IMG/VR virus record: IMGVR_UViG_3300032007_000006
Coordinates: 185,360-249,359 of that record
DNA length: 64,000 nucleotides
Reading direction: 5' to 3' (one strand)
Origin: a virus
Taxonomy: Duplodnaviria; Heunggongvirae; Uroviricota; Caudoviricetes
Part shown: one piece after another, positions 13,518-62,195 of the stretch
How positions within the stretch are numbered: the stretch's first letter is position 1
Layout: each line of letters begins with the position of its first letter
The notes under the pieces: generated by a model
The model's database searches: none
What the model saw: only the letters and a program-made list of their open reading frames with translations
What the model was told of the DNA's origin: nothing
Position numbers and translations under genes: made by a program

Positions 13518-14336
13518 TTATGACTTGAACTTCTTTAGTTTAGTCACTGGAAATATCTTTGTAGCATCTCTCAAAATCTTAGTCAAATCGGCACGTCTGT
13601 ACTTCACTGTGCGGCTGATGACCTTCTTCTGAGCGACCTTGCCAATGTAGGCATTGACTGCTATTGCCCATTCAAAGTCAAAAGTCTTCGAGTTGTTGAA
13701 TCCATTTGGATGATGACGCATCAACCATGCCATATGATCGCTGTCGCCAGTCAAGGCTACTTCAAAAACAATGGTTCGAGACTTGTTTACAAACAAATGG
13801 GAAACCCAGGTCTCCTTCCAGTAAGATTTCATGTTGATCACGTCAACCACAGTAGAGGCCTTTTCAATATGAGTGAATGGCTCTCCAAAAAAGTTTGTCA
13901 AATGAGAAACGCATCCAAAAAAGTCTATTTTCTTGAGACATTTCAGAATGGCCTCATAAATTGGACCACGAGTCTTGAGAATGTCCTGTCTAAATGTCTC
14001 TCTATTGGCATCTCTTGCAGCCCTTGAAGTTTTAAACGTCTGACCAGCCTGTCTATAGGCCTGTGCATTTCCACGCATGCTTCCAGTTCCTGCTGAAGCG
14101 CCAGCAACAGTCTTGACAGACTTGCCAATATATTGCTTGAGAACGTCATTCGCGGCATTAATGTCCTGCATCTTTTCAAGGCTGCCACCTCTGTCTGGAT
14201 GGTTTGTCAATGCAAGCTTCTTGTGAAGCTGACGCAGTTCAATGGCCGTTTTTGGAAACTCCGAGAGTCCAAAGATTTTCAGTGCGGTCATTGGATCCAT
14301 TATGGCTTCTTCAAGCCACTCTTTAAAGCTTTTCAT
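13518..14336 (-). CDS. J-domain (DnaJ-like, HPD) protein with an N-terminal capsid-targeting-sequence-like peptide MKSFKEWLEE (272 aa)
   Basis: LHKKLALTNHPDRGGS is a canonical J-domain helix II plus HPD; the N-terminus matches the T4 CTS consensus MKTYQEFIAE; paralog of the 14392-15213 product. Confidence 0.7.
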   Translation of the reverse strand: MKSFKEWLEEAIMDPMTALKIFGLSEFPKTAIELRQLHKKLALTNHPDRGGSLEKMQDINAANDVLKQYIGKSVKTVAGASAGTGSMRGNAQAYRQAGQTFKTSRAARDANRETFRQDILKTRGPIYEAILKCLKKIDFFGCVSHLTNFFGEPFTHIEKASTVVDVINMKSYWKETWVSHLFVNKSRTIVFEVALTGDSDHMAWLMRHHPNGFNNSKTFDFEWAIAVNAYIGKVAQKKVISRTVKYRRADLTKILRDATKIFPVTKLKKFKS

Positions 14337-14391: not shown

Positions 14392-15213
14392 CTACTTCAT
14401 TGGAATTCCGTAATATGCTGTCTTTATCTTTGATGGAGAAAGCAGCTTTTTTGGATCCTTTAAAATGGAAAGGTCTACACTTTTATATTTTTTCTTTCTT
14501 AAAACAACTTTCTTGTTTGAAGCCCTGCCTTTATAGAAATCAACGGCGATTGCCCATTCAAAGTCAAAATTCTTTGAATTTTCAAATCCATTGGAAGTAT
14601 TACGCATGCGCCAGGCCATGTGATCCGTATCGCCAGTTAATTCAATGCCAAAAACTTCCATTCCAGACTTGTCTGTAAAGACATAGCGAATCCAAGGCTC
14701 CTTGGCATGATCCTTCATTTTAACAATTTCTTCAACAGTGGATATTTTTGTAAGCGTATGTTCAAATTTTATACCCAATACCTCTGAAAAGTGCTTTGCG
14801 AATACAAAAGTAGGAAGTTTTTCAAGAAAAGCCGCAATCGCTCTATATATTGGTCCATGCGTCTTGAGAATGTCCTTCTCAAATTCGTCACGATTTGCAT
14901 TGGCTCTGGCTCTTGAGGTTTTAAACGTTTCTCCAGCCTGCCTATATGTTTGAGATGCGCTGGTCCTTGTTCCACTTCTAGCAATGCTCTTGACGGACTT
15001 GCCAATCCACTGCTTCAATACGTCGTTAGCCGCATTGATGTCCTTCATCTTTTCAAGACTTCCACCACGATCAGGATGGTTTGTCAAGGCAAGCTTCTTA
15101 TGCAAGTTTCTTAATTCAGTTGCAGTCTTTGGAAATTCGGAAAGACCAAAAATTTTCAACGCTGTTTTTGGATCCATAATGGCTTCAATAAGCCAATCTT
15201 TGAATGATTTCAT
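14392..15213 (-). CDS. J-domain (HPD) protein with N-terminal CTS-like MKSFKDWLIE (273 aa), paralog
   Basis: LHKKLALTNHPDRGGS; preceded by an AGTAAATAA motif 20 nt upstream. Confidence 0.7.
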   Translation of the reverse strand: MKSFKDWLIEAIMDPKTALKIFGLSEFPKTATELRNLHKKLALTNHPDRGGSLEKMKDINAANDVLKQWIGKSVKSIARSGTRTSASQTYRQAGETFKTSRARANANRDEFEKDILKTHGPIYRAIAAFLEKLPTFVFAKHFSEVLGIKFEHTLTKISTVEEIVKMKDHAKEPWIRYVFTDKSGMEVFGIELTGDTDHMAWRMRNTSNGFENSKNFDFEWAIAVDFYKGRASNKKVVLRKKKYKSVDLSILKDPKKLLSPSKIKTAYYGIPMK

Positions 15214-22734: not shown

Positions 22735-22986
22735 CTACATCATTCTATGGCCATTCCCAGTCATGTTTTTGCAGATTGCAATAAGAGAATTCAAGGCCAT
22801 TCCCAAAGATTCAATTCTCTGCTCCATTTTGTCCATTCTCTGCTCAATCTCATTCAGTCTGGAAAATATTACATCCTTTTCTTCCTTTCTCTTGTTTTTG
22901 AGAAGCAGTCTCTTCTTTGCATTTCCATATCCAACTTCATCATCATTGATCAATGATCCATCACTCGCTCTTTTCCATTGATCCAT
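22735..22986 (-). CDS. Hypothetical small coiled-coil protein (83 aa)
   Basis: ORF with a GAAGGAG SD. Confidence 0.35.
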   Translation of the reverse strand: MDQWKRASDGSLINDDEVGYGNAKKRLLLKNKRKEEKDVIFSRLNEIEQRMDKMEQRIESLGMALNSLIAICKNMTGNGHRMM

Positions 22987-23563
22987 CGGCATTATCTCCT
23001 TCATTTAGGAAGTCTTCAATAGTTTTAGGCCTGTTCTTCTTGGCTTCTTCCAGCTTCTCTCTTTGAGCCTTTGAATATCCCTTTCTATAGAAAGGAGCCT
23101 TCTTTGGTCCCTTTGCTATCGTGTCCATATAGGACTTGTTTCTGGCATTGATGGCATTGTATTTTGAATTTTCTTCATCATCCGTTTCAATTGGAATGTC
23201 ATAGAGAACTTCAAGCTGCCTTCGATATTCCAGATGGGTATTCAGTTTTTCCTTTTCAGTTTTGATTCTGGCCACAAAGGCATTGTATGCAATCTGCGTA
23301 TAGAACGCAAATGGATTCTGTGACTTTTCTGGATTAAAATTGCGACAGAATTGTATGCAGGCCAGAATTGCATCCGAAATCATTTCCTGCTTCCAGGTAT
23401 ATCCAGCAAATCTGCCAGATCTGGCCAGATTTTCGCATATTCTCATGATAGCCAGTGCTATCTTGTCTGGTATCTTTTCCTGACCAGATTCGCGCCACTT
23501 TACAATCTCTTCATAAAATTCCTTATTATTAACATAATTATGTGATACTCGCTTTCCTGCCAT
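22961..23563 (-). CDS. 55: Late-transcription sigma factor, T4 gp55 homolog (200 aa)
   Basis: HNYVNNKEF, ALAIMRI, AGYTWKQEMISDAILA, NPFAFYTQIAYNAFVARIKTEKEK align block-by-block with T4 gp55 (YNYVNNKEL ... GLAIM ... SGYT.SWKQEMI ... [21 protein letters not shown]). Confidence 0.85.
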   Translation of the reverse strand: MAGKRVSHNYVNNKEFYEEIVKWRESGQEKIPDKIALAIMRICENLARSGRFAGYTWKQEMISDAILACIQFCRNFNPEKSQNPFAFYTQIAYNAFVARIKTEKEKLNTHLEYRRQLEVLYDIPIETDDEENSKYNAINARNKSYMDTIAKGPKKAPFYRKGYSKAQREKLEEAKKNRPKTIEDFLNEGDNADGSMEKSE

Positions 23564-29058: not shown

Positions 29059-29103
29059 GCGTTTTCTTCAGGGAAATAAATATTTTGATGCTGCTTATAA
29101 AAA

Positions 29104-29451
29104 ATGAGCCTGCCTAGTTTTGCTGACTACATGAATCTCTTGACCACCTTGGAATCTATTGTTGAAGAATCTACATACATAGAAGATGTGCTGGAAGCAA
29201 TGACTTCCAGCGGAATAGGAGTAGCGTCTGTCACTACATCGGACATAGGTGGCGTGGTGCTTCCATTAGGCACTTTGGCTCGAAGAAGTCCTATTGATGA
29301 AGAGGGATTAAAGAACAGCAAGGAAGCACAGGACTTTCTGTCTAAACATATTAGACAGTACAAGTCTATCTGGAAAAGTGCTGGAGAAATGGTGGCAAAA
29401 AGCGTTGCCGAACATTTATTTCTGAAAAAGCCAATATTGTCGGCAGTCTAG
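29104..29451 (+). CDS. Hypothetical protein (115 aa)
   Basis: ORF at the start of a plus-strand block; N-terminus MSLPSFADYMN is weakly CTS-like. Confidence 0.4.
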   Translation: MSLPSFADYMNLLTTLESIVEESTYIEDVLEAMTSSGIGVASVTTSDIGGVVLPLGTLARRSPIDEEGLKNSKEAQDFLSKHIRQYKSIWKSAGEMVAKSVAEHLFLKKPILSAV

Positions 29452-31096: not shown

Positions 31097-31130
31097 ATTT
31101 CTTGTCCTAGCTAGGGAAAGTGTACTGAAA

Positions 31131-31480: not shown

Positions 31481-31520
31481 CCCTAGGGCAGCATATATTT
31501 AATGTTGCGAAAAATTTTTC

Positions 31521-39800: not shown

Positions 39801-39846
39801 TTTGCAAAATAGATGATTTGTTATATTTAGTTTTTGTCTGTTTGTT

Positions 39847-39876: not shown

Positions 39877-40734
39877 ATGAGTGACGTTTATGTATCCAAG
39901 TATCTAAGAACAGATATACCAGCTTCCAGAAGAAAACCAAAAACGCCTGAAGTGTATGATCCGCATGCGTCAAGGTGTCTTCGTGGACTTAATCCATATC
40001 TTTCCTTTAATAATGAGAATTATGACACTTCAAATGAACAGGAAATAGTCAAGCGGCTCCAGGAAGAGCAAATTCAGATGTTTGGCTACAAAGGCCTTTA
40101 CATTCTTAAAGGACATAATACAGTAGACAAATTGTTTGGAGAAGACATTGGTGCATCATATGACTACTGCTTTCCTATTGAGTTCTTTCCTGAGGATGGT
40201 GATGGTCCAGAAAATTCCTGGGCTGTTGAGATGTATGGATTCTCACAGCTTGATACAATTGCAATACATATTGCCTACGACAGACTGAATGAAGAGATTG
40301 CAAGACTTGGCGACAAGGACAGAAAATTTCCTCTTCCAGGAGATCTGTTTAGATATAATTTGACAAAGCAGCTTTTTGAAATTAAATGGGTTTCTGGAAG
40401 ACTTCACAAGTTTATGAAGGGATGTCCAACAATGTACAAGATTGAAATGCAGCTCTTCAATGTAGGTCAGGAAACGTTCAATACTGGAAATGAAGATATT
40501 GACTTTCTCAATACATTCAATCAAACATATCAATATCCCAATGGAGACAATGAAGAAATTAGAAAGGAATCCGCTGAACTGGCACAACCAGAACCAAATA
40601 TATGGAATCTCAATCTTCAAAATCCTGTTTCATATGAACCAGAACTTGAACCAAGACATTCAAAAAAGATTGAACGTCTTGAACCACAAAAAAGACGCAT
40701 AGGAAATAAAATTCGTTTTGAAAAAGTAAAATAA
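39877..40734 (+). CDS. Hypothetical protein (285 aa), probably virion-associated
   Basis: ORF in a late-type context. Confidence 0.45.
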   Translation: MSDVYVSKYLRTDIPASRRKPKTPEVYDPHASRCLRGLNPYLSFNNENYDTSNEQEIVKRLQEEQIQMFGYKGLYILKGHNTVDKLFGEDIGASYDYCFPIEFFPEDGDGPENSWAVEMYGFSQLDTIAIHIAYDRLNEEIARLGDKDRKFPLPGDLFRYNLTKQLFEIKWVSGRLHKFMKGCPTMYKIEMQLFNVGQETFNTGNEDIDFLNTFNQTYQYPNGDNEEIRKESAELAQPEPNIWNLNLQNPVSYEPELEPRHSKKIERLEPQKRRIGNKIRFEKVK

Positions 40735-40756
40735 ATATTTCTAGAGGCTAAGTGCA

Positions 40757-42476: not shown

Positions 42477-42501
42477 ACCCACAAGTAAAAGGATGCATTC
42501 T

Positions 42502-45913: not shown

Positions 45914-45932
45914 AGTGATTGGAATCCATAAG

Positions 45933-48798: not shown

Positions 48799-48828
48799 AG
48801 GGAGCCTTTTGGCTCCCTATATTTTTAC
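48799..48828. terminator. Bidirectional terminator (agggagccttttggctccct plus atattttta)
   Basis: 8-bp stem, T-rich tail. Confidence 0.6.
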
Positions 48829-49379
48829 TTTATCTTGAATGAAACCAATTTTCCATCCTTGAACTTGGCTCGAAGTTTTCCCGCCATGGAGCAGGAGATA
48901 TTAATTCTTGAAGTGCCATCATCCTTCTTTTTCTTGAGATAGATGTCCATTAGCATGGACTTGTCCATCTGCGTCTTAAAGATGCTTTCCTTGGGAGCGT
49001 TTTCATCCTCCCTCCATTCGATAAAGTCTTCAGACTGAAGCATCTTGGCCAGATCATTGACAGCGGTGTCAATAGTTTCTCCAATTTCAAGGACTTCCCT
49101 CAGATTCTGAAGGATTCCAAACCAGTGAAGAGCAAAGGATTTCTTTCGCTCATAGTCATTAAGGATTTCAAGGATTTTTTCGTTTGGATTGTTGACATTT
49201 GTCTGCATTTCGGAGGCCAGCTTGTCTCCAGCGGCAAACAGTTCAATCAAGTCATTTTCAGACTTTTCCTTCCAGAATGTTTCTGGATGGTTGCTCTTCA
49301 TCCAGGCCTTCAAGGCTCTGGCAGAGGCTGTTGGATCATGTACTAGGGCTTCTGTGAGCCATTTCTGGAATGAAGTCAT
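48825..49379 (-). CDS. Putative internal protein with N-terminal CTS MTSFQKWLTE (184 aa)
   Basis: CTS-like N-terminus; AGGAG SD. Confidence 0.5.
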   Translation of the reverse strand: MTSFQKWLTEALVHDPTASARALKAWMKSNHPETFWKEKSENDLIELFAAGDKLASEMQTNVNNPNEKILEILNDYERKKSFALHWFGILQNLREVLEIGETIDTAVNDLAKMLQSEDFIEWREDENAPKESIFKTQMDKSMLMDIYLKKKKDDGTSRINISCSMAGKLRAKFKDGKLVSFKIK

Positions 49380-49387: not shown

Positions 49388-49951
49388 CTAAAAGTAGAAG
49401 TTCTTTACTTTGCCATTGGCAAAGATGATATTGAAGTTGACGCCTCCATTAAGTTTCACCATTCCCTTGTAGGTGTCAATTTGACGGAGAATGTCTTTTT
49501 CGTTGACGTCGTCAAAGAATGGAACGGTAAATTTTCCCTGTTCCATGTTGTAATACTTGTGCTTCTTTGCAAAGGCCACAAGTTTCTTGATCGCCTCTTC
49601 CTGACTGTCACCTTTTGAAATGCAGGAAAGAACATCCATTAGATTTTTGGAATATATCATGTATCTTCCCTTGATCATTTCATATCTGTCGGCCATTTTC
49701 AAGGCCTGCCTGCATTCAATCTGCCAGCGTCCAGCGTGGTCTTTCTTGGCAAAGGCCACCATATTGGCGACATGCTTGTCCATTTTGGTGAAGAACTTGC
49801 CAATGGGCTTGCCTGCATAGATGAGGTCATCAACTTCATCAATATAGAGCGAAGTTCTGTCAGTGACATACTGAACGGCCGACATGTCGGAAAGAAACTT
49901 GGTATATTCTCTGTCTGCGGATTCAGCAAGATATGTAGAAAATGATTTCAT
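49388..49951 (-). CDS. Putative internal protein with N-terminal CTS MKSFSTYLAE (187 aa)
   Basis: Internal ATG of the ORF-track ORF; CTGTAAATA motif 24 nt upstream. Confidence 0.5.
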   Translation of the reverse strand: MKSFSTYLAESADREYTKFLSDMSAVQYVTDRTSLYIDEVDDLIYAGKPIGKFFTKMDKHVANMVAFAKKDHAGRWQIECRQALKMADRYEMIKGRYMIYSKNLMDVLSCISKGDSQEEAIKKLVAFAKKHKYYNMEQGKFTVPFFDDVNEKDILRQIDTYKGMVKLNGGVNFNIIFANGKVKNFYF

Positions 49952-49974
49952 TTTATAATTTGACATAGTAGAGA

Positions 49975-49983
49975 TATTTACAG
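49975..49983 (-). promoter_or_regulatory. CTGTAAATA late-promoter-like motif
   Basis: Upstream of the CTS gene at 49951. Confidence 0.35.
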
Positions 49984-50040
49984 TAGTAGATAGTCTATGT
50001 GTGCAGTTTTTTTGTGTTTGAATAATTTGTTGGAAGTATC

Positions 50041-50128
50041 TTTTCCATGCTCCATCAACTTTGATGTAGCAATCGCTAGCGGAATTTATAGTTTTCTGGG
50101 AATATGAGACTTTAATATGCGTAGCCAT
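50041..50128 (-). pseudogene. Truncated duplicate of the 5' end of the 50200-50757 gene
   Basis: MATHIKVSYSQKTINSASDCYIKVDGAWKRYF versus MPAYVKVSNAYKTVNSEYDCYIKVNGAWKICDQ; the reading frame then runs into the unrelated CTS gene. Confidence 0.4.
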
Positions 50129-50766: not shown

Positions 50767-53670
50767 CTAGTTGATGTACTTGAAGTATATGTCGCCATCA
50801 TTGCCACCAGACGGATCACCTGTTCCATAGCGTATTGTCGCTCCAGCAGTAATTGCTCCAGAATTTAGATATGTCAACTGATGTGCTCCGCCAACATTTG
50901 CATTTGAAGCAGTCAATGTTCCACCATTCATGTACATTAACTGCGTTGTAGAACCAACTGTATCTCCAGATGCAGTTAATGTTCCTGCATTGAGATATAT
51001 CGGTTTCTTTGCACTTCCAACTGTATCTCCAGATGCTGTTATCTTTCCACCACTTAGATATACTGGATTTTTGGCATTGCCAACATTGGACGTTGATTTT
51101 GTAAGTTTTCCTGAACTTAGGAATATAGGCTCTGTTCCGGAACCAACTGTTGTTGTGGTCTTTGTCAGTGTTCCTCCAGTCAGATATATGGGTTCGGTTT
51201 CTGAACCGACTGTGGATGTAGATGCAGTTATTGTTCCACCTGTCAGATATACTGGCTTTATTCCTGAACCAACTGTTGAATTTGAAACACTAATTGCTCC
51301 ATTGTTGAGATATACTGGCTTTATTCCGGAACCAACTGTTGATGTTGATGCCGTTGCAACGCCTTTATTGAGATAAATCGGAACAATTCCAGAACCGATT
51401 GTGGAGAGACCAAGTTTTGATGCAGTAGTTGCTATATGATTAAGCTGCTTTTTGTCGCCGCGAATATAGTATATTTTTCCAGTGAATTCATTGGAAGCAA
51501 TGCGTCCGTGACCAATTGTTTCGTATATTTCGTTGATGCAATGTGCATTGCTTGTAGATACATACTGTCCGCTTGCATTTGCTTCCCAGCGAATGTCATT
51601 TTTGATGTCATAGACAATGGCATCCTTGATGTTTTTAGAATTCAGAGCGGCAATGGTAACTTCAGCATCTTCAGTTGATTCGCAGACGTATACGCCTTTT
51701 ACCATATAGTCGGCCTGCCAGGCCTGATCTGCTGGATTTCGCTTGCTTTTTGCTCCAAACAGCATCATTCCTTCATCCATCATGTGGATGACGTTCATTG
51801 GATTTGTTGCTGGATCAATTGGAATAAGTGGAGTCGGTTCTGGAACTGGATCATTCTGACGTTCTATGTATTGAACATAGGATTCTCCAAGAAAGTCCGT
51901 TATATTTTTTATTTCTTCAAATATGGAATTTCCTACGAGACTTTTCAGTCCTCTGCAAAGTTCCTCTGGTGCCATGGAACCAAATAAAAGTTCCTTTAGA
52001 TTGTGTGGACCAGATTTTGGTTCATCTTCATCAACGCATACTGGAGCTGAATTAAACAAGTCAATAAGATCTTCTCCAATGGCATCTTTAAGAAGAATTG
52101 TTTCCTTTAGCAAGGAGCCTGTAGACATTCTTTTCCAGATGCTGCACATTGTTTCGTTGACTGCCAGATCTCCAAATAGAAGATCTCCAATGTCTACTGG
52201 ACTTGGATCAGATGAAGATATTTTCCAGCTGTCATTCTTGCTTTCTTCAAGAAGACACGTTTTTGTTTTAGATGCAGATTCGCTGGAAGAAACTGAATAT
52301 GTTACGTCCTGATAAATTCCTGGAACAATTGTATCGTATGTTGCTTCAATAAGACTCCAGGAATTTCCAGAATATGCAAAAAGGCCGGTCTTGCTGCATT
52401 CAAATTCCGAATCAAAGAATCCAGAGTTGACATTCAGTTTTACAGCAATGCATGCGGCATCTCCTTCCTTTGGTGAAGGAACCATTGTTCTTATTGGAGA
52501 TGGATTTCCTCCTCCGCCATTTAAGGCATACTTGATGAATTCCTGCTTGATAAGCGATTCCATTGTTGTAACGCTGGAATTGCCAGAAACAGTCTTTATT
52601 GCTGCAGTAGATGAAGGATTTTCAGCCTGCTGTGCAGTAGTTGACGTTAGTGTTGATGGATAGAGATACTGCTTGGAATTGTATGTAGGAACTGGAAGAT
52701 TATACTCATTTTGAGAATGGCCTTTATAGTCATATCTCGTTTGATTTAATCTGGCCCAGTTTCCATTTAAGCGTCTCCAAAGCTGCTGTCGTTTAGTTGT
52801 AGATTCAACCATGCATCTTTTATTAGTGTCTGTTAGCCACTCATAAAATGGAAGACCAATGCGGTCGATTATTTTGACTGTTTCTGTAGCCAGTCCACCA
52901 GTTGTAAATCTATCCCATACTTCTGAAAAATTTGCATTGCCATTAAAGAAAAACTGCCGCAGTCCTCCAATTGGACGACTTCCTTGAACAGGAGACAATT
53001 TGTCCAGCCAGTCATAGAAGGCTGAACTAAAAATGTCTTCTATGACATGCATCAATGAATTAGCCAGTCCTTGTGAATCTCCATGCAGATTGCGACAGGC
53101 TCGTCCAAATATGTCATCTGTATCTGCATCGGTTCTATCTCTTGCACCGAATAGCATTTCGGCCAGATCGGCTGGTTCTCCAATGCTTGTACCAGTTTTT
53201 AGCGTATTATCTGGATTATGAGTCTTGTTGTAAAAGTAGGAATAAAGACTTCCCCAGGTATTGATATTTCTTTGAAGCAGCTTGTCTATGCTCTGTACAA
53301 GACCAAACTTGTGGGCCTTTATTCTTTTCGTTTCTGTGCCATCAAACGTTGTGCCAGTTCCACCAACCTTTGAAACTCTTGAGTTTTCTGGAACATCTGT
53401 TCCATCTGGCTTTTTCGTGGCGATCTCCTCTTCAAAGAATGGAGATCTCTTTCGCCCAGGAATTGGAGTAGTCCATGCAATAGTAACTGGAGTATCATGC
53501 GTTTCGGTTAATCCGAGCGTGTATATAAGATCATTAATTCTCTGCCACCATTCCCCCATAATGTTTGTATAGTCAAGTGGAGTGACGGCATATATTTCCT
53601 TCAATTGAGTGCATCCTTTAATGAATTCGCTCAATCTAGATTTGGTTGAATTATTTCCTGCGTCAGGCAT
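50767..53670 (-). CDS. Tail fibre protein (967 aa) with nine C-terminal 19-aa repeats
   Basis: Repeats VGSG.KP.YL..G..T.S.ST x9 at about 50800-51400; TTGTAAATA 22 nt upstream. Confidence 0.6.
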   Translation of the reverse strand: MPDAGNNSTKSRLSEFIKGCTQLKEIYAVTPLDYTNIMGEWWQRINDLIYTLGLTETHDTPVTIAWTTPIPGRKRSPFFEEEIATKKPDGTDVPENSRVSKVGGTGTTFDGTETKRIKAHKFGLVQSIDKLLQRNINTWGSLYSYFYNKTHNPDNTLKTGTSIGEPADLAEMLFGARDRTDADTDDIFGRACRNLHGDSQGLANSLMHVIEDIFSSAFYDWLDKLSPVQGSRPIGGLRQFFFNGNANFSEVWDRFTTGGLATETVKIIDRIGLPFYEWLTDTNKRCMVESTTKRQQLWRRLNGNWARLNQTRYDYKGHSQNEYNLPVPTYNSKQYLYPSTLTSTTAQQAENPSSTAAIKTVSGNSSVTTMESLIKQEFIKYALNGGGGNPSPIRTMVPSPKEGDAACIAVKLNVNSGFFDSEFECSKTGLFAYSGNSWSLIEATYDTIVPGIYQDVTYSVSSSESASKTKTCLLEESKNDSWKISSSDPSPVDIGDLLFGDLAVNETMCSIWKRMSTGSLLKETILLKDAIGEDLIDLFNSAPVCVDEDEPKSGPHNLKELLFGSMAPEELCRGLKSLVGNSIFEEIKNITDFLGESYVQYIERQNDPVPEPTPLIPIDPATNPMNVIHMMDEGMMLFGAKSKRNPADQAWQADYMVKGVYVCESTEDAEVTIAALNSKNIKDAIVYDIKNDIRWEANASGQYVSTSNAHCINEIYETIGHGRIASNEFTGKIYYIRGDKKQLNHIATTASKLGLSTIGSGIVPIYLNKGVATASTSTVGSGIKPVYLNNGAISVSNSTVGSGIKPVYLTGGTITASTSTVGSETEPIYLTGGTLTKTTTTVGSGTEPIFLSSGKLTKSTSNVGNAKNPVYLSGGKITASGDTVGSAKKPIYLNAGTLTASGDTVGSTTQLMYMNGGTLTASNANVGGAHQLTYLNSGAITAGATIRYGTGDPSGGNDGDIYFKYIN

Positions 53671-53691
53671 GGCTTCTGCAAAATGTCTTGA

Positions 53692-53700
53692 TATTTACAA
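53692..53700 (-). promoter_or_regulatory. TTGTAAATA late-promoter-like motif upstream of the tail-fibre gene
   Basis: CATTGTAAATATCAAG context. Confidence 0.4.
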
Positions 53701-54112: not shown

Positions 54113-54255
54113 CTTCATGTTTGAGGAGAAAAGGACATTTTCTGACAAGGAGTCCTGACGTGGCGAAGTTAAATATTTTGCAGTGCATCCTGAAGACGCC
54201 GATGGGTGGAGCATTCTCCGTCGTTGTTCTGTCGGTGCTTCTGGGTGGAGATTAT

Positions 54256-54774
54256 ATGGCAAAGCAAATTACCGAGAATTTCACTCTCGAAGAAATGTAT
54301 CGTTCCGCTACGGCAGAATCTAGAAGAATTGACAATCGTCCTTCAAAGGAAATTGAAGAAAATCTAACGCATCTGGTAAAGAACGTTCTTCAGCCTCTTA
54401 GAGATCATTTTGGAGTTGCCATCAGAGTAACTTCAGGATATCGTTCTCCCGCATTAAATCGCGCAATTGGTGGTTCTCCGTCATCCTGGCATTCTCATGG
54501 ATGCGCCGCCGACATTCAAATTCCATCTGGAAAGGTGTCCCTCAAGACTATTTTTGAGTACATCTACAACAATCTTCCATACACGGAACTCATTGCAGAA
54601 GGCATTGACAGAAATGGAAGAGTTTCATGGGTTCATGTGGCTCTTGTAAAGGGACGCGAAGCCAAGAACAATCTTGATCCCGCTGGTCGTCTCTGCACGA
54701 AATACATGAAATCATCTGAAGGGGCAGTCTACAGGGCTTCCTTTGACAAAATCAGGGGAATGATGAAAATCTAG
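54256..54774 (+). CDS. Peptidase M15 (VanY / L-Ala-D-Glu peptidase-like) endolysin, 172 aa
   Basis: SGYRSPALNRAIGGSPSSWHSHGCAADI, the M15 Zn-binding H...D...H signature. Confidence 0.7.
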   Translation: MAKQITENFTLEEMYRSATAESRRIDNRPSKEIEENLTHLVKNVLQPLRDHFGVAIRVTSGYRSPALNRAIGGSPSSWHSHGCAADIQIPSGKVSLKTIFEYIYNNLPYTELIAEGIDRNGRVSWVHVALVKGREAKNNLDPAGRLCTKYMKSSEGAVYRASFDKIRGMMKI

Positions 54775-54788: not shown

Positions 54789-55124
54789 ATGAAATCGTTT
54801 GCAGACTATGTAAATGAAGCAGGAATCACTGATGGACCACAAAAGGCCAAGTGGATCATTGACAAGAAGCGTCGTGGAGAGATTATTCTGAAGGCTGGAA
54901 CCAAGATGCTTTTCAGAATGTGCAAGTATCAAAACATGATTGAACCATACTCCGTCAAAATGATTTACTCTACCACGCGGAAAAATCCTGGTAAGCTCTT
55001 CCCAACATTGAAGGATGCTATGGCCCATATTGACAAGATGTTCGCCTATGCAATCCTTGAAAAGTACATTGTAGAGCCTATGTCTAAGGATGTTCAAGAC
55101 TGGCTTGAAAAATGCGTATTCTAG
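54789..55124 (+). CDS. Putative internal protein with CTS MKSFADYVNE (111 aa)
   Basis: First gene of a 5-gene tandem CTS cluster. Confidence 0.5.
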   Translation: MKSFADYVNEAGITDGPQKAKWIIDKKRRGEIILKAGTKMLFRMCKYQNMIEPYSVKMIYSTTRKNPGKLFPTLKDAMAHIDKMFAYAILEKYIVEPMSKDVQDWLEKCVF

Positions 55125-55138
55125 TCAAGGATGCTTAA

Positions 55139-55465
55139 ATGAACACATTCAACGACTATATTCTTGGTAAACCAGTTAAATCTTCCAAAAGAAAGGCCAA
55201 GTGGAGCATAGACAGGAAAAATCCAAACTATGTCAAGCTGAAATGCGGTCAAAAAGTCTTGTATGTGCTGAACAAGATTGTAGGTCGCAAAACTGACAGA
55301 CCTTATATGGTTTCACTTTCATCTGGAGGCGCAAATGCCTGCAGAACGTTCAATGATGCAATGACTTTTATAGAGCATATGCTGACTACAGCAAACTTTG
55401 ATCTATATGAAGTGGAACCAATGAAGATGGAAGTGAAGAATTGGCTTGAAAGAGTTGAAAATTAG
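55139..55465 (+). CDS. Putative internal protein with CTS-like MNTFNDYILG (108 aa)
   Basis: Paralogous architecture to its neighbours (C-terminal ...W.E(K/R)...). Confidence 0.5.
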   Translation: MNTFNDYILGKPVKSSKRKAKWSIDRKNPNYVKLKCGQKVLYVLNKIVGRKTDRPYMVSLSSGGANACRTFNDAMTFIEHMLTTANFDLYEVEPMKMEVKNWLERVEN

Positions 55466-55474
55466 GAAAAGTGT

Positions 55475-55963
55475 ATGAATACGTTCAAGGAATACATTAA
55501 AAATCATCTAACTGAAGATAGTATAGACAATCCGTGGTCTAAAATAAGAACTTTGGGCATTTCTTCGGAAAATCGTCAAATTTCTCCATCTCAGTTTGAA
55601 GAATGGATTAGAGCATGGAAGAAGCTGGCCAGTGAAGGCAATTACAGCGACATGCAGTGGAAAAAGGGAAATCGAGTCGGTGCTGTTGTTGTTAGGCGTG
55701 GAAACAAGTCTTATTTCACGTTGAAAAAGTTTCCTGCCTCATCTATCGGAGATGCCTTCTATCGCTTGGAACTTAGTTATGGACTAAAGGTTTCTGCATC
55801 CTTCAAAAGGCCGCATTGGGATTTCAAGACGCTGGAAGATGCTTTGATGGTAGCGCAAAGATGCAAAGAACAGGATCGCAGCGCCGATGGTCTTGCATTT
55901 CCTGCTTCAATGCCTGGCACTATCAAGGACTGGCTGGAAAAAGACATTACAGGGGAAAAGTAG
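55475..55963 (+). CDS. Putative internal protein with CTS MNTFKEYIKN (162 aa)
   Basis: CTS-like N-terminus. Confidence 0.5.
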   Translation: MNTFKEYIKNHLTEDSIDNPWSKIRTLGISSENRQISPSQFEEWIRAWKKLASEGNYSDMQWKKGNRVGAVVVRRGNKSYFTLKKFPASSIGDAFYRLELSYGLKVSASFKRPHWDFKTLEDALMVAQRCKEQDRSADGLAFPASMPGTIKDWLEKDITGEK

Positions 55964-55965
55964 AT

Positions 55966-56553
55966 ATGAATACGTTTAAGGAATATATTCTAGGGGAAGA
56001 GGTTGAGAAGAATGACCTTTTCATTGGAATGCCTGTTCTGAAATGGGAAAAAAGCGATCCTTTCACTATTCTTCTTAAAGGAGAGTTTCTTAACTGCCAG
56101 TCTAAAGAGACTAGGCAGAAACTGAAAGCAGACATGGAGTCTGGACGTCTAAGCAAGACGCAAATAGCCAGAGCAAAGAAGCAGGCTATTGAATTTATTG
56201 GTTCTGTTGTCAATGCATCCATGATGGCCAATCAGTACAGTCTCTCCATTTCAGAATATGCCAAGCAGATTTCAAGAAACGGAGTTCTTCTTGCTCCAGC
56301 AACGGATGAAACTTCCTATTTTGTCTGCGCCCATAGAAGCGTTTCTGGAATGGATGCAAAGGCTGTTCTTCCAGTCAAGGATTTAAAGAATATTCAGTCT
56401 GACATGACAAAGGTTCTTGTCTCTGAACTGAAAACAGGCAAAAATCCATTTCTGTGTCTTGACAGGGCGGCAAAGCCGAAAGACATTGTCGTTCCCAAGC
56501 CATCAAAAACCATGATTGACTGGATTGGCGAACCATACGTTAAAAACATATAA
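55966..56553 (+). CDS. Putative internal protein with CTS MNTFKEYILGEE (195 aa)
   Basis: Internal ATG 3 nt after the upstream stop. Confidence 0.5.
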   Translation: MNTFKEYILGEEVEKNDLFIGMPVLKWEKSDPFTILLKGEFLNCQSKETRQKLKADMESGRLSKTQIARAKKQAIEFIGSVVNASMMANQYSLSISEYAKQISRNGVLLAPATDETSYFVCAHRSVSGMDAKAVLPVKDLKNIQSDMTKVLVSELKTGKNPFLCLDRAAKPKDIVVPKPSKTMIDWIGEPYVKNI

Positions 56554-56556
56554 CGA

Positions 56557-56565
56557 TTGTAAATA
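56557..56565 (+). promoter_or_regulatory. TTGTAAATA late-promoter-like motif 21 nt upstream of the 56586 ATG
   Basis: GATTGTAAATATCAAAAC context. Confidence 0.4.
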
Positions 56566-56585
56566 TCAAAACAATATCTTGCAAG

Positions 56586-57710
56586 ATGAATACATTCAAC
56601 GAATATATTTTTGAAGCTGGAGCCACTACGGCAGAACCTCTTCACTGGGCCATTGATCCACATGTGGACAGATGCATTCTTCTGAAGCGTGGCAGAAAGT
56701 CCATTCTTGGAATTGACTTTGATGGAAAGAACTACACCGTAATGACAGATCCAAAGGACAAGTCTTCCATGGGATGTCAGAAGAGCAAGTTTGTGGACGC
56801 CTTTGCCATGGCGCAGGAACTGCTCAATGACAAGCTGGAAGGTGCCTTGATTCCAGCATGTCCTTCCAATATCCGTCGCTGGCTCAAGCGTGGACCAGAA
56901 AAGTCCGAAGATGATGGAATTGAAATGTCTAATGAAAGCGTTTCGGAATCTTCAGATGAATGGGAAACTGCAACGTCTTCCATTCCCAAGGACTATTTTG
57001 AATGGATCAAGGGAAAGAACGAAGGCGAAGTTGTTTTAAGACGCCGCAGGAAAAACTACATTAAAGTGTGCAAAAGAATTCCTGATCCAGCAAATTCCAA
57101 GTTTTTTAAGGAATGGATTAAGGAAAAGCCATACTGCATGAAGATGTATGCCTATTCCATGGAGAATAAGTCACATCTTAAACTGGAATACGCCACCCTT
57201 GAAGAACTGTTGAAGAGTGCCGAATCCTACAAAAAAATGGACTACAGTGCCAACGCATTGAACTTTCCTGCCATGCCAGACGATGTCAAGGAATGGCTGG
57301 AAAAAGGATACAAGAATCCAAGCTCGGAAGTTGTTTCTGAGGCTGCAGAACATGTATTCAGATGGGAAATATTCAAGAAGTATGCCAACAAAGTGTCTCT
57401 CATTCTTGATGGCCGCTATGAAGTGGCCTCTATCTATAGAAACTTTGGAAAGAGTGCAGACGTTCTTCCTTATGCTATTGAAATCTATTCCTTCAATCAT
57501 GCCTGCGAATTTGCTGGTCTTGAAAAGACCATCGCGGATGCAGTGGCCAGAGTTGCAAAGGAGCTTATCCATCCAATCAAGCTGAAAGGCGATCCTCAAA
57601 TGGCTGGCGTATCTGCCGCCGATGTCAAGATTCCTCCAATGCCTACTTCTGCAAGGCTGTGGCTTGACAAGTCATTTGACGAAGCAACCATTCTATCCGA
57701 GAAAAAGTAG
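56586..57710 (+). CDS. Putative internal protein with CTS MNTFNEYIFE (374 aa)
   Basis: Largest member of the cluster. Confidence 0.55.
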   Translation: MNTFNEYIFEAGATTAEPLHWAIDPHVDRCILLKRGRKSILGIDFDGKNYTVMTDPKDKSSMGCQKSKFVDAFAMAQELLNDKLEGALIPACPSNIRRWLKRGPEKSEDDGIEMSNESVSESSDEWETATSSIPKDYFEWIKGKNEGEVVLRRRRKNYIKVCKRIPDPANSKFFKEWIKEKPYCMKMYAYSMENKSHLKLEYATLEELLKSAESYKKMDYSANALNFPAMPDDVKEWLEKGYKNPSSEVVSEAAEHVFRWEIFKKYANKVSLILDGRYEVASIYRNFGKSADVLPYAIEIYSFNHACEFAGLEKTIADAVARVAKELIHPIKLKGDPQMAGVSAADVKIPPMPTSARLWLDKSFDEATILSEKK

Positions 57711-57820
57711 CATTTCTTTAAATATTAAGCTTTATAGCATATAAGGGGGTGGGACTGTTGTGTCCTGCTCCCTTTCTTTCTTGTCGCTTCCTTTTGGACT
57801 TTTCCACGGAGGAAACTGAA

Positions 57821-59266
57821 ATGCAAATGGTCAAGGAAATGCTTGAGTTCATTGTAGACACAAGGCTTGCTGGAGAAGACAACGTCAAGACTGGAATTCC
57901 ATTCCACCTCCAAAAGCAGGAAGCCACATTGATTGTAATGTGGGGAGACAAGACGCATTCCATCCTGTCGGCCGACAAGTATTCCGATTCTGATGCCCTT
58001 GCTTCCGTCCATGAATATCCTGCTCCTGGAGAATATAAAATCTCCATCTATGTCGAATCTCCATACTCCTGGTCGGATGTATACATCTCTACGCTTGACT
58101 GCCAGGATGCCATATTCAACTGCATTCCTTCCCTGTTCAACGAGAAAACAGAATGCATGCGATACTTCAAGCAGACTTTGGTGGAGCTTCCAACTCCGCT
58201 GCCGCGAATGAAGGGATCCATTCAGTTCACTCTGTCCAATCCCGCAACTGGATGCAATGGAATAAAATTGAATGAAAACTTCTCGTTCCTCTTCATTCAC
58301 TGCAGCTCCTTAAGAAAGATTCATCCAAAGCTGTTCTCCAGCAACAAGCATTCCATCAGCTTCTCCTACTGCTTCTATGGATGCAGCAAGCTTGAAGAGC
58401 TTCATAATGAGATGTTCAAGGGATGCTCCACTGTTCTGTCCTATGCCTTCTGCTTCTTTGGATGCTATGAATTGAAGACTATCCCAAGCGATCTGTTCAA
58501 GGACTCGTTCAAGGCGCAGGGATTTAGAGGCGTGTTCAAGGACTGCCTTGGCCTGCGGTCCATTCCAGAAAACCTTTTCAGTGGATCTTGCTCGGCCGAA
58601 CTGTTTTCCGAAGCATTTCAGAACTGCATTTCCCTTCAAAGCATTCCAGAGAGACTGTTCTCCAGATGTCCAAACGTAGTTGGATTCTCCTCCACCTTCG
58701 AAAATTGCATATGCGTGACAAGCGTTCCAGAAAACCTCTTCAAGTGGTGTCCGAGAGTGCTGCACTTTAGATCCACCTTTTCCAAGAGCGGATTGAAGCA
58801 TGTTCCAGAAGACCTGTTTGCCGACAAGAAGTATGTCTCTTCCTATTCCTACGTATTCAGCTGGTGTGACATCGAGGACGTGCCTGGAAAGCTGTTCAAG
58901 GACTCCATCTATGCTGTGGACTTTTCTGGATGCTTTTATGGATGCAACCATCTCAGAAGCGTTGGAAGGGAGCTGTTTGCCAATGCCATATATGCAAGAC
59001 GATTCAGCCACTGTTTTTATGGCTGCAAGAATTTAAAAAAGGCTACCATCGAAATTTCTTCAAGAACGGTAGACACGGCCTATCTTTTTATTGAAAAGAA
59101 GGAAGATGCTGAAATTACAGTTGTAGCGCAGCGATTGTCTTCTACTGCAAAAATGCTTACACTAAAAAGCGAAAAGCTTGGAATTACTGTTGAAGAAAAG
59201 TCATTTGTCAAGGCTACGCTCAGAGCACTCTGGGAGTCAATTCTAAAAATTATGAGACACGACTAG
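57821..59266 (+). CDS. BspA-type leucine-rich-repeat (LRR_5-like) protein, 481 aa
   Basis: About 12 repeats of the F..C..L..IP..LF pattern (SIPENLFSGSCSAELFSEAFQNCISLQSIPERLF...); GGAGGA SD. Confidence 0.6.
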   Translation: MQMVKEMLEFIVDTRLAGEDNVKTGIPFHLQKQEATLIVMWGDKTHSILSADKYSDSDALASVHEYPAPGEYKISIYVESPYSWSDVYISTLDCQDAIFNCIPSLFNEKTECMRYFKQTLVELPTPLPRMKGSIQFTLSNPATGCNGIKLNENFSFLFIHCSSLRKIHPKLFSSNKHSISFSYCFYGCSKLEELHNEMFKGCSTVLSYAFCFFGCYELKTIPSDLFKDSFKAQGFRGVFKDCLGLRSIPENLFSGSCSAELFSEAFQNCISLQSIPERLFSRCPNVVGFSSTFENCICVTSVPENLFKWCPRVLHFRSTFSKSGLKHVPEDLFADKKYVSSYSYVFSWCDIEDVPGKLFKDSIYAVDFSGCFYGCNHLRSVGRELFANAIYARRFSHCFYGCKNLKKATIEISSRTVDTAYLFIEKKEDAEITVVAQRLSSTAKMLTLKSEKLGITVEEKSFVKATLRALWESILKIMRHD

Positions 59267-59282
59267 CAGAGATAAATCCTCT

Positions 59283-59311
59283 TGACAGGTCCTCTAAATG
59301 TTGGTATGCTC
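59283..59311 (+). promoter_or_regulatory. Sigma70-like promoter TTGACAGG-N16-TATGCT
   Basis: -35, 17-bp spacer, -10 TATGCT upstream of the second LRR gene. Confidence 0.5.
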
Positions 59312-59343
59312 TTTCTGAAATGCCAGCATAGGAGGACCTTTTT

Positions 59344-60972
59344 ATGTCTGAAGAATTTGCCAGCAATGAATTTGCTATAGACGTTCTATGTGATGAAAAT
59401 GGCTTTGTCGCCCTTCCGTTCCGATGCCTTGAAGAGGAAGGCCTTGAAGTAGACTGGGGTGGAGAAGCAGAAACTCTTTCAAAAGGAAGACTGTTTCTTG
59501 CAGAGCACAGATATCCAGAATCAAAAACCTGGCACAGGATTGTGATTAGGTGTGATGACTGGTCGAAAGTATGGATGGTCGCGATTGATTCATCTGTAGA
59601 AATTTTAAGCCGACTTGCTCCACAGAATGCCGTCAGCAAGGCTAGACACTGTACATGGAGATTTTTAACTCCACTTCCTAAAGTGGCTGGAATGCTGGTG
59701 TATGACTGGACAGAACTTCCATGCGATGCAGATGACAATTTTATTGTACGCGACTTTGAAACAACCGAAGCTCCCAACTCGCTTGAGCATTCCATGTGCT
59801 TCTTTGGAAAGATAGAAGAAATTCCACACGACTTCTTCTCAAACATTGAGGCTTCGTCCTTCAAAGGAGCATTTCAAGGATGCATTATCAAGTGTTCTAT
59901 TCCATATTCTCTCTTTTCTAAACAAGGCTCTGCAAAGTCTTTTGCATCATGCTTTGAAGAAGTGGAGTTTAAAGTTCAATTTCCTCTATATGAAGAAATG
60001 TTTGGAGACTGCACATCGGCAGAAAATTTTACTGGACTGTTTAGAGGTTCCAATCTGAACTACATTCCTGAAGGACTGTTCAAGGGATGCAAAGCGGCCA
60101 AGTCCTATAAGTCCTGCTTTAGTAGAACCAGAATAAAAGAGATTCCCAATGTAAAACTCTTTGGAGATTCTCCAGAAGCAGAAAACTTTAGCTTCTGCTT
60201 CAATGGATGCCATGAAATTGAAGTCGCTCCATCAAGAATCTTTTCTGGAACAAATGGAAAGGATTTTTCCTACTGCTTTGCCAACTGCACTCAACTTGAA
60301 ACGGTCGAAGCTCCATTTGTAGACTGCAGCAATGCCGAAAACTTTTTCGGATGCTTTAAAAACTGCTCTTCTCTGCTGGCATTGAGTGGTGTCGTGTTTC
60401 TATCTGCAGGCAAGGCCACAGATTTTGGCGAATGCTTTGAAGGATGCGAAAAGCTTGCCACAGTGTCGGATACGCTGTTTCAAAATACGCATGCGGCTGA
60501 AAACTTTGATGCAGTGTTCAAGGACTGCAAAGGAATAAAGAGCCTTCCGAAAGGACTGTTCTCGAAATGTCCAAATGCCGCATACTTCAATGCATCATTT
60601 ATGAACTGCATTTCTCTTGATGAAATTGCGGCAGATATATTCAGAGGATGCAAGGAAGCGGAAGAATTTGAATCAACATTTCAGGGATGCATTAATCTTT
60701 TTGTAGTGCCAGTTACTTTGTTTGCATGGTGCGAAAATGTCATTACGTTCAAGAAATGTTTTGATGGATGCATCAATGCCTTTGACAGCATGAAACTGTA
60801 CATTGCTTCCTCCTATGTTGCAGACGCTTCTTATTTTGTTCCATCAAACGCAACGTTCTTGAAGAATGCTGGAACTGTAGTGTTGATTAAGGAAGGAACA
60901 AAGACAGAAAGGACATTCATGCTTGAAGAAAGAAAAAATCCATATCTCAAGATTGAAACTCTGCATGCGTAG
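59344..60972 (+). CDS. BspA-type leucine-rich-repeat protein, paralog (542 aa)
   Basis: Same repeat pattern (F.GC..L..IP..LF); AGGAGG SD. Confidence 0.6.
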   Translation: MSEEFASNEFAIDVLCDENGFVALPFRCLEEEGLEVDWGGEAETLSKGRLFLAEHRYPESKTWHRIVIRCDDWSKVWMVAIDSSVEILSRLAPQNAVSKARHCTWRFLTPLPKVAGMLVYDWTELPCDADDNFIVRDFETTEAPNSLEHSMCFFGKIEEIPHDFFSNIEASSFKGAFQGCIIKCSIPYSLFSKQGSAKSFASCFEEVEFKVQFPLYEEMFGDCTSAENFTGLFRGSNLNYIPEGLFKGCKAAKSYKSCFSRTRIKEIPNVKLFGDSPEAENFSFCFNGCHEIEVAPSRIFSGTNGKDFSYCFANCTQLETVEAPFVDCSNAENFFGCFKNCSSLLALSGVVFLSAGKATDFGECFEGCEKLATVSDTLFQNTHAAENFDAVFKDCKGIKSLPKGLFSKCPNAAYFNASFMNCISLDEIAADIFRGCKEAEEFESTFQGCINLFVVPVTLFAWCENVITFKKCFDGCINAFDSMKLYIASSYVADASYFVPSNATFLKNAGTVVLIKEGTKTERTFMLEERKNPYLKIETLHA

Positions 60973-61779: not shown

Positions 61780-61788
61780 TTGTAAATA
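61780..61788 (+). promoter_or_regulatory. TTGTAAATA late-promoter-like motif directly after the terminator, 32 nt upstream of the kinase gene
   Basis: Recurring motif. Confidence 0.4.
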
Positions 61789-61820
61789 TTGAATGATCTC
61801 CATAGCATAGAAATTAATCA

Positions 61821-62195
61821 ATGAAAGGATATATTGAGTGGCTTAATGAGAATAAGCTGTTTGAAAAGGCCTTGAATGTTGGTGCTAAAAGCGCAATGCC
61901 TAAAGAAAATCAAGCAGTTATCTTGTCTGGTGGTGCGGGATGCTTTGCCGCCACTACTATGGTCAAAACTTCTTCTGGCCACAAGGCAATAAAGGATGTT
62001 GCAGAAGGAGACATAGTTGAATCGTGGAATGAAGAAACTGGACAGCTTGAATGGAATCCAGTTCTAAAGGTCAATGTATTTCCACCTGTAAAAAGAATGA
62101 TGCGATTGACTTTTGACAATGGCGAGGAAGTCATTTGCACGGAAGATCACGAATTTCTGGTTGATGGAAAATGGGTGCAAGCTAAGGATTTATAG
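61821..62195 (+). CDS. P-loop NMP-kinase-like protein N-terminal extein (with CTS-like MKGYIEWLNE) fused to a split-intein N-fragment
   Basis: ...AVILSGGAG then the intein CFAATTMVKTSSG (Block A) ... TEDHEF (Block B), then a stop. Confidence 0.6.
   Translation: MKGYIEWLNENKLFEKALNVGAKSAMPKENQAVILSGGAGCFAATTMVKTSSGHKAIKDVAEGDIVESWNEETGQLEWNPVLKVNVFPPVKRMMRLTFDNGEEVICTEDHEFLVDGKWVQAKDL

Follow-up and report, generated by a model that had tools for sequence, protein, structure and literature searches.

A T4-type leader, probably a capsid-targeting sequence, on many genes of an uncultured giant phage

Introduction

A capsid-targeting sequence was reportedly described by Mullaney and Black in 1996 in the internal proteins IPI, IPII and IPIII of phage T4. 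IPII and IPIII are basic proteins; IPI blocks the GmrSD restriction enzyme, and IPIII is required to infect E. coli ECOR17. In the T4 genome (NC_000866), IPII and IPIII start MKTYQEFIAE/A (here and below, a slash follows the leader), and IPI starts MKTFKEF, with MKTFKEFTSTTTPVSTITE/A as its full leader; the site of the gp21 protease that served as our reference lies at residues 8-10 in IPII and IPIII and at residue 19 in IPI. The first ten residues suffice for packaging in T4, and amber suppression traced targeting to positions 4 and 7, and processing to positions 8 and 10 (PMC9026906). The internal proteins of T-even phages form a diverse set with the leader alone in common (PMC3012670), and they are injected and able to counter host defences (PMC3012670; bioRxiv 10.1101/2022.04.14.488369). 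Internal proteins are the first phage proteins to face these defences; beyond a few T-even examples they are hard to recognise, since the leader alone is conserved. Here, we describe such a leader at the start of at least 12 genes, five of them in tandem, in a 64-kb stretch of an uncultured viral genome (positions 185,360 to 249,359 of IMG/VR record IMGVR_UViG_3300032007_000006). This whole stretch is referred to below as the window, its genes are named as in Table 1, and positions are counted from its first letter.

Results

A conserved N-terminal leader

The original prediction, made from the window alone, listed 13 genes beginning with M-[KN]-[TS]-F-x-[ED]-[YW]-[ILV]-x-E. All 13 open reading frames (ORFs) are present, 12 as clear members and one, F, as a weak case. 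The full expression is matched by only five of them (T1, T5, J1, J2 and C2) and missed by the other listed ORFs; its positions 1-8 fit eight ORFs, and a looser form, M[KNT][STG][FY]..[YWF][ILVMC], fits 12. In six-frame translation of the window, the strict eight-residue motif was found eight times, compared with none in 100 shuffles, and the loose motif 12 times, compared with a shuffle mean of 0.19. Each six-frame match coincides with the start of an ORF. Similarly, an aromatic residue at position 4, another at position 7, [ILVM] at position 8 and E at position 10 occur jointly in 8 of 74 N-termini, against 0.02 expected from the internal rate. A lack of enrichment had been named in advance as grounds for giving up the prediction; within the window the motif is enriched by both measures, and the leader is real and strongly non-random.

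The proposed identity with the T4 capsid-targeting sequence is supported by a match at exactly the residues mapped by mutagenesis (4, 7, 8 and 10). Twelve ORFs carry the targeting determinants, namely a leader of about ten residues with aromatics at positions 4 and 7, and F (29104) does so only with a shift of two residues. The accompanying claim of an L/I-x-E cleavage site held for eight ORFs, in which the site occupies residues 8-10 (with V at position 8 in T1), and failed at this position for the others: it is displaced in T3, T4-gene, C1 and F, and T2 has none. E10 is missing in T2, T3, T4-gene and C1, of which T3, T4-gene and C1 have an [IL]-x-E slightly later, like T4 IPI. The predicted mature proteins of T5 and J1, beginning at residue 11, start with AGATTAEPLHWAIDPHVDR and AIMDPMTALK, respectively. 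Seven mature proteins (T1, T2, T3, T4-gene, J1, J2 and D2) are basic, with isoelectric points (pI) of 9.1-10.0. In structure models of T5 and J1, the leader appears as a separate short helix of low confidence.

Beyond the window, where our reading was limited to about 10 kb on each side of the same genome, two additional members lie just outside, encoding proteins of 390 and 218 amino acids (aa). At least 12 genes in 64 kb plus two in the next 10 kb, compared with three in all of T4, bear out the suggestion of a several-fold larger repertoire, with the reservation that not all bodies are distinct. For the 390-aa protein, Pfam and PDB gave no match, and an impression that it is a nuclease was dropped as unsupported. 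Leader proteins of 390-401 aa (MKTFKDFITE, MKSFQQYINE and MLSFIEFIAE) stand immediately upstream of the large terminase gene in the loci L006 (14254-15426) and L016 (17317-18522 and 18534-19712), and an IMG/VR family of ~190 aa with the leader is encoded between the small and large terminase genes (L020). The ORF at 10281-11846 (-), which starts MMNTFAQNF..., was considered as a further member and rejected: its N-terminus belongs to the conserved DUF2828/phrog_850 domain of an RNA-binding protein, and positions 7 and 8 do not fit.

Source genome, orthologues and spread of the leader

The window belongs to a giant, uncultured phage that its rIIA, rIIB, gp55, clamp loader, neck and tail-tube genes place in the T4 superfamily. 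Among the 50,697 genomes of the INPHARED phage collection, no near DNA match was found, and the clamp loader shares no more than ~43% identity with those of INPHARED phages. Neither megablast with the T cluster (T1 to T5) nor tblastn with T5 gave matches in phage genomes; IMG/VR contained no T5 relative, and its clamp loaders were only 30% identical, with no close relative. ENA metagenomes contain T5 and its neighbours on a 326,324-bp contig (sample ERZ27256887; k141_1848205), and the left end of the window runs onto another contig of this sample, 37 kb long (k141_183908). As both contigs of this sample cover the window, the genome measures at least ~363 kb. By coordinate arithmetic, the 326-kb contig ends near window position 7592, and window positions 1-7591 are apart from the rest in ERZ27256887; hence the window derives from a different assembly or from a version that was joined. 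Two relatives were recovered from other assemblies: a 384-kb ENA scaffold (384,292 bp; ERZ28653742 WILK20-1 scaffold_22), with a T5 protein of 80% identity, and a contig of 224 kb in GCA_016648615.1 (JAEEGL011314933.1), with the gene order of the window.

The leader is well preserved among orthologues. Across 13 proteins of the T5 family, with identities of 47-99%, E10 is kept in at least 90%, and the closer ones share MNTF[KN]EYIxE. Distant T5 orthologues have other, shorter leaders (MKINLNE, MNFLNE and MNLISE) that end in [LI]-x-E at the same alignment column, and the conserved body of the family begins a few residues after the leader, at AEPLHW. The T2 orthologue in the 384-kb relative starts MNTFKEYIAE. 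At least 90% of the J-family sequences, which go down to 29% identity, retain F4 and E10, with starts such as MKSFKTFLLE, VKNFRQFLKE and MNTFKEYIEE, and the J protein of RB43-type phages has no leader. A J-domain homologue starting MSKMFDQLLE is encoded in T4-like phages of Aeromonas, as in the phage Aswh_1 (L008, MH791414.1; 2995-4008), just downstream of genes 3 and 1, which is the ipI site in T4. This protein may be an unrecognised internal protein of cultured Aeromonas T4-like phages.

The leader is also widespread in uncultured viruses. A scan of IMG/VR for DNA encoding MK[ST]FK[ED][YWF]xxE gave at least 120 loci, and the following figures refer to the first 124 matches. ORF starts account for 121 of them, and TAAATA lies within 50 nucleotides (nt) upstream in 63%, compared with 2.4% of random 50-nt windows. 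Position 8, which the search pattern left free, is L or I in 111 of the 124, and S, A or N predominate at residue 11. Behind these leaders, the bodies form 42 BLAST clusters. T4-type marker genes were seen in 17 of the listed leader loci. In one locus (L059), two small and very basic proteins, starting MKTFKDFLDE and MKDFKDFMEA, are encoded between a portal-side gene and gp21-gp22-gp23, the position that gp67 and gp68 have in T4; another (L040) has four MKTFKEYLEE genes in tandem. The tag is therefore not specific to this lineage: it turns up frequently in uncultured viral contigs, the typable ones being T4-like, and at least one contig has it next to the protease. A metagenome scan for MNTF[KN][ED]YI was noisy, with many matches inside prolyl-oligopeptidase-like genes.

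Late-promoter-like motif and gp55

Genes with the leader are preceded by a second shared element, TAAATAT, and the window encodes a homologue of gp55, the T4-type late sigma factor. The placement of the motif is non-random: of its 12 copies, none lies in a gene body, 11 are intergenic and one covers the last 3 nt of the neck-protein gene, in a window that is ~89% coding. All 12 are oriented to the downstream gene, and ten sit 19-34 nt ahead of a start codon (11 when the peptidase start at 54202 is counted). The motif heads the tail-tube operon, the M15 peptidase unit (which runs gap-free into T1, T2, T3 and T4-gene), T5, C1, D2, E and F, as well as the gene of a 967-aa protein, a leucine-rich repeat (LRR) protein gene and two genes without known function; it precedes none of the recognised replication genes. 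All leader genes lie in TAAATAT-headed units except J2 and J1, which are headed by TAAATAA, and in the 224-kb relative an exact TAAATAT stands 19-24 nt upstream of both J genes. C2 belongs to the transcription unit of C1, since its start overlaps the C1 stop.

Compared with the T4 late promoter TATAAATA, the motif is alike in its TAAATA core, its short gap to the start codon, its position between genes and the presence of a gp55 homologue in the window, and it differs in its consensus, which here is nTAAATAT. To judge from the TAAATA core and the genes that it heads, nTAAATAT probably works like a late promoter. With the same core and the gp55 homologue in view, late transcription would be the best reading of these units.

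The motif also bears on two gene starts. The ORF of D2 is open upstream to 50128, the start chosen by gene callers; a start at MKSF (49951) is supported both by a TAAATAT within the extension and by the orthologue of the 384-kb relative, which lacks this extension. A GTG at 57749 follows the TAAATAT at 57719 after 23 nt, suggesting that the LRR gene begins with this codon rather than at 57821. The region upstream of D2 holds one of two copies of a 29-residue N-terminal module, M.x.[IV]KVSxxxKT[IV]NSxxDCYIKVxGAWK. One copy starts the 185-aa gene at 50757 (50200-50757 (-)), and the other, 62% identical, is an in-frame remnant upstream of D2 (49952-50128 (-)); the gene of the 967-aa protein (50767-53670 (-)) adjoins.

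Protein bodies behind the leader

The original prediction held the bodies after the leader to be unrelated. This proved incorrect for part of the set: T1, T2, T3 and T5 are paralogues that share a domain of ~100 aa ending P-x-M-P-x-x-V-x-x-W-L-E-K, of which T5 has three copies, and J1 shares 60% identity with J2. This leaves at least six classes of body (T domain, T4-gene, J proteins, C1, C2, D2 and E), and D1 may be distantly J-like. T1, T2, T3, T4-gene, T5, C1, C2, D1, D2 and F had no match in Pfam or PHROGs; models of T5 and of the J1 C-terminal domain had no significant match in PDB or BFVD, and no enzyme or inhibitor fold match was found for the T domain. T5 contains an internal copy of the leader pattern (KFFKEWIKE, residues 172-180; aromatic, aromatic, I, x, E) that is kept in all orthologues, and this may be a fossil of a fusion between tandem leader genes or an internal protease site.

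Two bodies had been assigned in advance, as a J domain and as a kinase. The J domain of J1 and J2 is genuine: its NHPDRGG stretch, with the HPD motif, is invariant in the orthologue alignment, J1 matches the J domain of Tim14 at E = 5.8e-7, and over 56 columns its model can be superposed on 2guz_A at 1.7 A (41% identity). The Pfam DnaJ scores of J1 and J2 (19.7 and 22.4 bits) are under the curated cut-off of 27.8. The second assignment concerns E (61821), the N-terminal piece of an intein-split P-loop protein that matches kinase families only weakly and below cut-offs. E consists of 40 extein residues ending GGAG, the start of the P-loop, and the N half of an intein; it is followed by a separate 385-aa ORF and then, beyond the window, by an ORF that opens with the intein C half (...IVHN/SGKG...) and continues into the C-extein. 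Joined by hand, the exteins give GGAGSGKG, and the matches, weak and below cut-offs, are CoaE (4.3e-5) and Zeta toxin (1.8e-3). Of all this cargo, only the J domain hints at a host-directed activity, and some of the proteins could instead be components of the core or of an inner body.

The layout of E, a 'fractured gene' with N-extein and intein N half, a free-standing ORF, and intein C half with C-extein, is repeated in the genome. UvsW is fractured at 45879-48790 into a 359-aa protein with a Hint domain, a 313-aa TnsA-like ORF and a 310-aa ORF starting ...VYNLSVKNDHNYIVNG; the P-loop protein itself spans 61821-63355 of the window and continues in L006 at 11155-12069. The terminase ORF beyond the window (L006, 15433-16806) opens with an intein-like sequence, and inteins are also present in NrdD (135-3134) and in a DNA polymerase B fragment.

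Other genes of the window

Among the remaining genes are two paralogous TAGT (PF20691) genes, at 5073-6155 (-) and 6559-7626 (-). We regard TAGT as a family of T4-type DNA glycosyltransferases, a hint that the phage DNA may be hypermodified; modified DNA is the setting in which T4 IPI is useful. A set of accessory genes includes an outer-membrane beta-barrel protein (PF13505; 9301-9945 (-)), which suggests a Gram-negative host. A radical-SAM/SPASM-like protein (42493-43551 (+)) is 40% identical to a protein of RB43-type phages, and two LRR proteins (phrog_9915) are encoded at 57821-60972 (+).

Table 1. Leader genes, TAAATAT copies and T4-type genes in and next to the window
Feature	Coordinates	Strand	Length (aa)	Leader or start	Remarks
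T1	54789..55124	+	111	MKSFADYVNE/AG	basic, mature pI 9.6; one T domain; orthologues in L016, L151 and L214
T2	55139..55465	+	108	MNTFNDYILG	T1 paralogue, 35% identity
T3	55475..55963	+	162	MNTFKEYIKNHLTE (starts MNTFKEYIKN)	L-T-E at 12-14; T domain
T4-gene	55966..56553	+	195	MNTFKEYILGEE	L-G-E at 9-11; body unlike other T proteins; orthologue in L016
T5	56586..57710	+	374	MNTFNEYIFE/AG	three T-domain repeats; TAAATAT 20 nt upstream
J1	13518..14336	-	272	MKSFKEWLEE/A	leader directly before HPD-bearing J domain; C-terminal domain without recognised fold
J2	14392..15213	-	273	MKSFKDWLIE/A	60% identical to J1; TAAATAA upstream
C1	40757..41143	+	128	MKSFLEYCYD	acidic; first [IL]-x-E is IKE at 19-21; directly follows neck-protein gene
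C2	41143..41634	+	163	MKTFKEYLQE/H	
D1	48825..49379	-	184	MTSFQKWLTE/A	weakly similar to N-terminal part of J proteins; orthologue starts MISFQKWLTE
D2	49388..49951	-	187	MKSFSTYLAE/S	
E	61821..62195	+	124	MKGYIEWLNE/N	N-extein and N half of intein
F (weak member)	29104..29451	+	115	MSLPSFADYMNLL (motif shifted two residues); first residues MSLPSFADYMNL	IVE at 20-22
Leader protein beyond window			390	MKTFKDFITE	adjoins terminase gene
Leader protein beyond window			218	MKSFKDYILS	own TAAATAT motif
Peptidase_M15_3, endolysin-like	54202..54774	+			hydrophobic N-terminus; first gene of unit continuing into T1, T2, T3 and T4-gene
TAAATAT	54170..54176	+			25 nt before ATG 54202; heads unit of peptidase, T1, T2, T3 and T4-gene
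TAAATAT	56560..56566	+			20 nt before T5; conserved in relatives
TAAATAT	40732..40738	+			19 nt before C1, with C2 after
TAAATAT	49974..49980	-			23 nt before MKSF start of D2, with D1 after; same layout in L016
TAAATAT	61783..61789	+			32 nt before E
TAAATAT	29077..29083	+			21 nt before F
TAAATAT	25267-25273	-			
TAAATAT	31130-31136	-			
TAAATAT	31495-31501	-			
TAAATAT	39823-39829	-			
TAAATAT	53691-53697	-			
TAAATAT	57719-57725	+			
gp55 homologue	22961..23563	-			T4-type late sigma factor; phrog_234, E = 5e-41
rIIA	32888-35371				T4-type gene
rIIB	15857-17404				T4-type gene
NrdD with intein	135-3134				T4-type gene
Clamp loader	35816-36760				T4-type gene
Tail-tube protein	37783-38514				T4-type gene
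Neck protein	39877-40734				T4-type gene

Discussion

Our analysis indicates that the leader genes of the window probably encode late proteins with a T4-type capsid-targeting sequence. This reading draws on the motif and its enrichment, the identity with T4 at the mapped positions, the promoter motif together with gp55, the conservation among orthologues, and the occurrence of the leader beside gp21 in other T4-like contigs. Core binding, cleavage, incorporation into virions, injection and any role against host defences are inferred. In such a scheme, host RNA polymerase with phage gp55 would transcribe the genes late, from TAAATAT. The first ten or so residues, as a short helix with aromatics at 4 and 7, would bind the scaffolding core of the prohead, and the protein would be enclosed as the shell forms. 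A gp21-type protease would then cut after [I/L/V]-x-E, mostly at residue 10, later in T3, T4-gene and C1, and perhaps never in T2. The mature protein would stay in the head with the DNA and enter the next host cell along with it. [quoted passage not shown]

Several observations weigh against this reading. The cleavage motif is displaced in T3, T4-gene, C1 and F and absent from T2, and the shared leader is partly explained by paralogy, among T1, T2, T3 and T5 and between J1 and J2. The 12 TAAATAT copies are not above chance in number (7.9 expected), unlike their placement; the motif of J2 has one mismatch, and no exact copy of the T4 late promoter, whose consensus stands at about -10, occurs in the window. 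Neither gp21, gp22 nor gp23 was seen in the window and ~10 kb on each side of it. A gp21 profile built from five proteins was also searched against a set of 5.8 billion proteins, and the best 120 of at least 7995 matches included none on the 326,324-bp or the 384,292-bp contig. In INPHARED, however, 2552 records contain gp21 and 2677 the T4-type clamp loader, the counts by host genus being nearly equal. By this indirect argument from co-occurrence, a phage with such a replication and late-transcription apparatus would very probably have gp21.

If the leader does direct proteins into the prohead, the fate of the cargo can still be read in two ways. Described in the original prediction as an arsenal of injected effectors against host defences, the cargo has this role by conjecture, as the T domain and the J1 C-terminal domain are without a recognisable fold match. 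A real alternative is a structural role, in which the leader would bring in parts of the core, of the scaffold or of an inner body that give order to a very large head and are either degraded at maturation or stay as structural filling. The T family is small, basic and tandemly repeated and resembles no enzyme or inhibitor fold; in L059 the leader stands on small, very basic proteins at the gp67/gp68 position beside gp21; and the coliphages phAPEC6 (350 kb) and 121Q have an internal protein body seen by bubblegram imaging (PMC7247149). However, filling would hardly account for a J domain and a P-loop protein, and T4 proteins with exactly this leader are injected (PMC3012670; bioRxiv 10.1101/2022.04.14.488369); we judge this alternative rather unlikely.

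Other explanations would deny the leader a role in packaging altogether. That it is a mere trace of gene duplication gains something from the paralogy within the T and J sets and the weak J-likeness of D1. This explanation is already disfavoured, and in our view very improbable: at least six mutually dissimilar body classes share the leader, as do 42 unrelated body clusters among the IMG/VR matches listed; within families it is more conserved than the body, with F4 and E10 kept at 29% identity; and the related J proteins of RB43-type phages are leaderless. The conserved start might instead act as nucleic acid, either enhancing translation initiation or providing a homology block for cassette shuffling, which is documented in T4-type genomes (PMC2839356). 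The second codon is indeed AAA, AAT or AAC within an A/T-rich start, and neighbouring members share ~21 of 24 nucleotides. Nevertheless, synonymous codons vary while the amino acids are kept (Ser as TCG, TCA or AGC, thus switching between AGC and TCN; Glu as GAA or GAG; Leu or Ile as CTT, CTC or ATT), and the DNA upstream of the leader genes is unconserved. Selection thus acts on the protein and not on the DNA, and the conserved positions are the functional ones mapped in the T4 peptide, which leaves a nucleic-acid signal with very little credit. Finally, the leader as modelled could be a generic short amphipathic helix that targets something other than the prohead, such as a membrane, a host factor or, as a degron, a protease. 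Its near-identity to an experimentally defined capsid-targeting peptide, its co-occurrence with probable late promoters and its place next to gp21 and head genes in other T4-like contigs make such a destination very improbable.

The mechanism proposed for the leader genes is the known one of T4, and internal proteins that share the leader alone are textbook matter for T-even phages. The novelty lies in the instance, a giant and very distant relative that carries at least 14 tagged genes in ~84 kb, of at least seven body classes, J-domain proteins among them. It is conceivable, and we put it forward tentatively, that a rumen-type giant T4 relative uses the tag to load an unusually large and enzymatically varied cargo, comprising injected J co-chaperones, an intein-split P-loop protein, basic repeat proteins and possibly dozens more. 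The J-domain protein suggests that a co-chaperone could be delivered ready-made to take over host DnaK. Since the leader persists nearly unchanged in so distant a relative and marks many different proteins, leader and late promoter together can serve as a search key in metagenomes for candidate injected proteins. If the proposed role is true, this pair would be a searchable signature of unrecognised injected proteins in uncultured T4-like phages.

Known systems provide several points of comparison. Rki of the T4-related phage RB43 is, like J1 and J2, a phage J-domain protein with an HPD motif, and J1 shows 31% identity over residues 13-163 in tblastn with the J-domain proteins of RB43-type phages. 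An early promoter drives Rki, whose action on DnaK falls in the early phase of infection (PMC3486835); Rki is leaderless, whereas J1 and J2 bear the leader and late-type promoters. By injection, a J protein with a leader and a late promoter could plausibly reach the same early time window. The gp67 and gp68 proteins and other gp21 substrates are likewise late proteins that are taken into the core and cut at [LI]-x-E, and those at this position in L059 carry an MKTFKDF leader. In T4, however, gp67 and gp68 start MEGLIE and MLLIPE, and the genes of the window are scattered in the replication and tail region, away from head genes. The giant phages phiKZ and SPN3US have many internal head proteins with N-terminal propeptides cut by a gp21-related prohead protease (PMC5694885). 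These propeptides mostly measure ~80-130 residues and share no short tag, unlike the tag of the window, which is short and of the T4 type.

The closest likeness is to the internal proteins of T4 themselves. They differ from the window proteins at position 7, which is F in T4 and Y or W here, and at position 2, which is often N in the window; the cargo here includes a J-domain protein and an intein-split P-loop protein, and it belongs to a phage of at least 363 kb that is known solely from metagenome assemblies. Both sets, however, place an N-terminal leader of about ten residues, M-K-T-[YF]-x-E-[FY]-[IL]-x-E, on otherwise unrelated proteins, several of which are small and basic in the window too, and the T cluster stands beside a lysis enzyme as ipII and ipIII stand beside gene e in T4.

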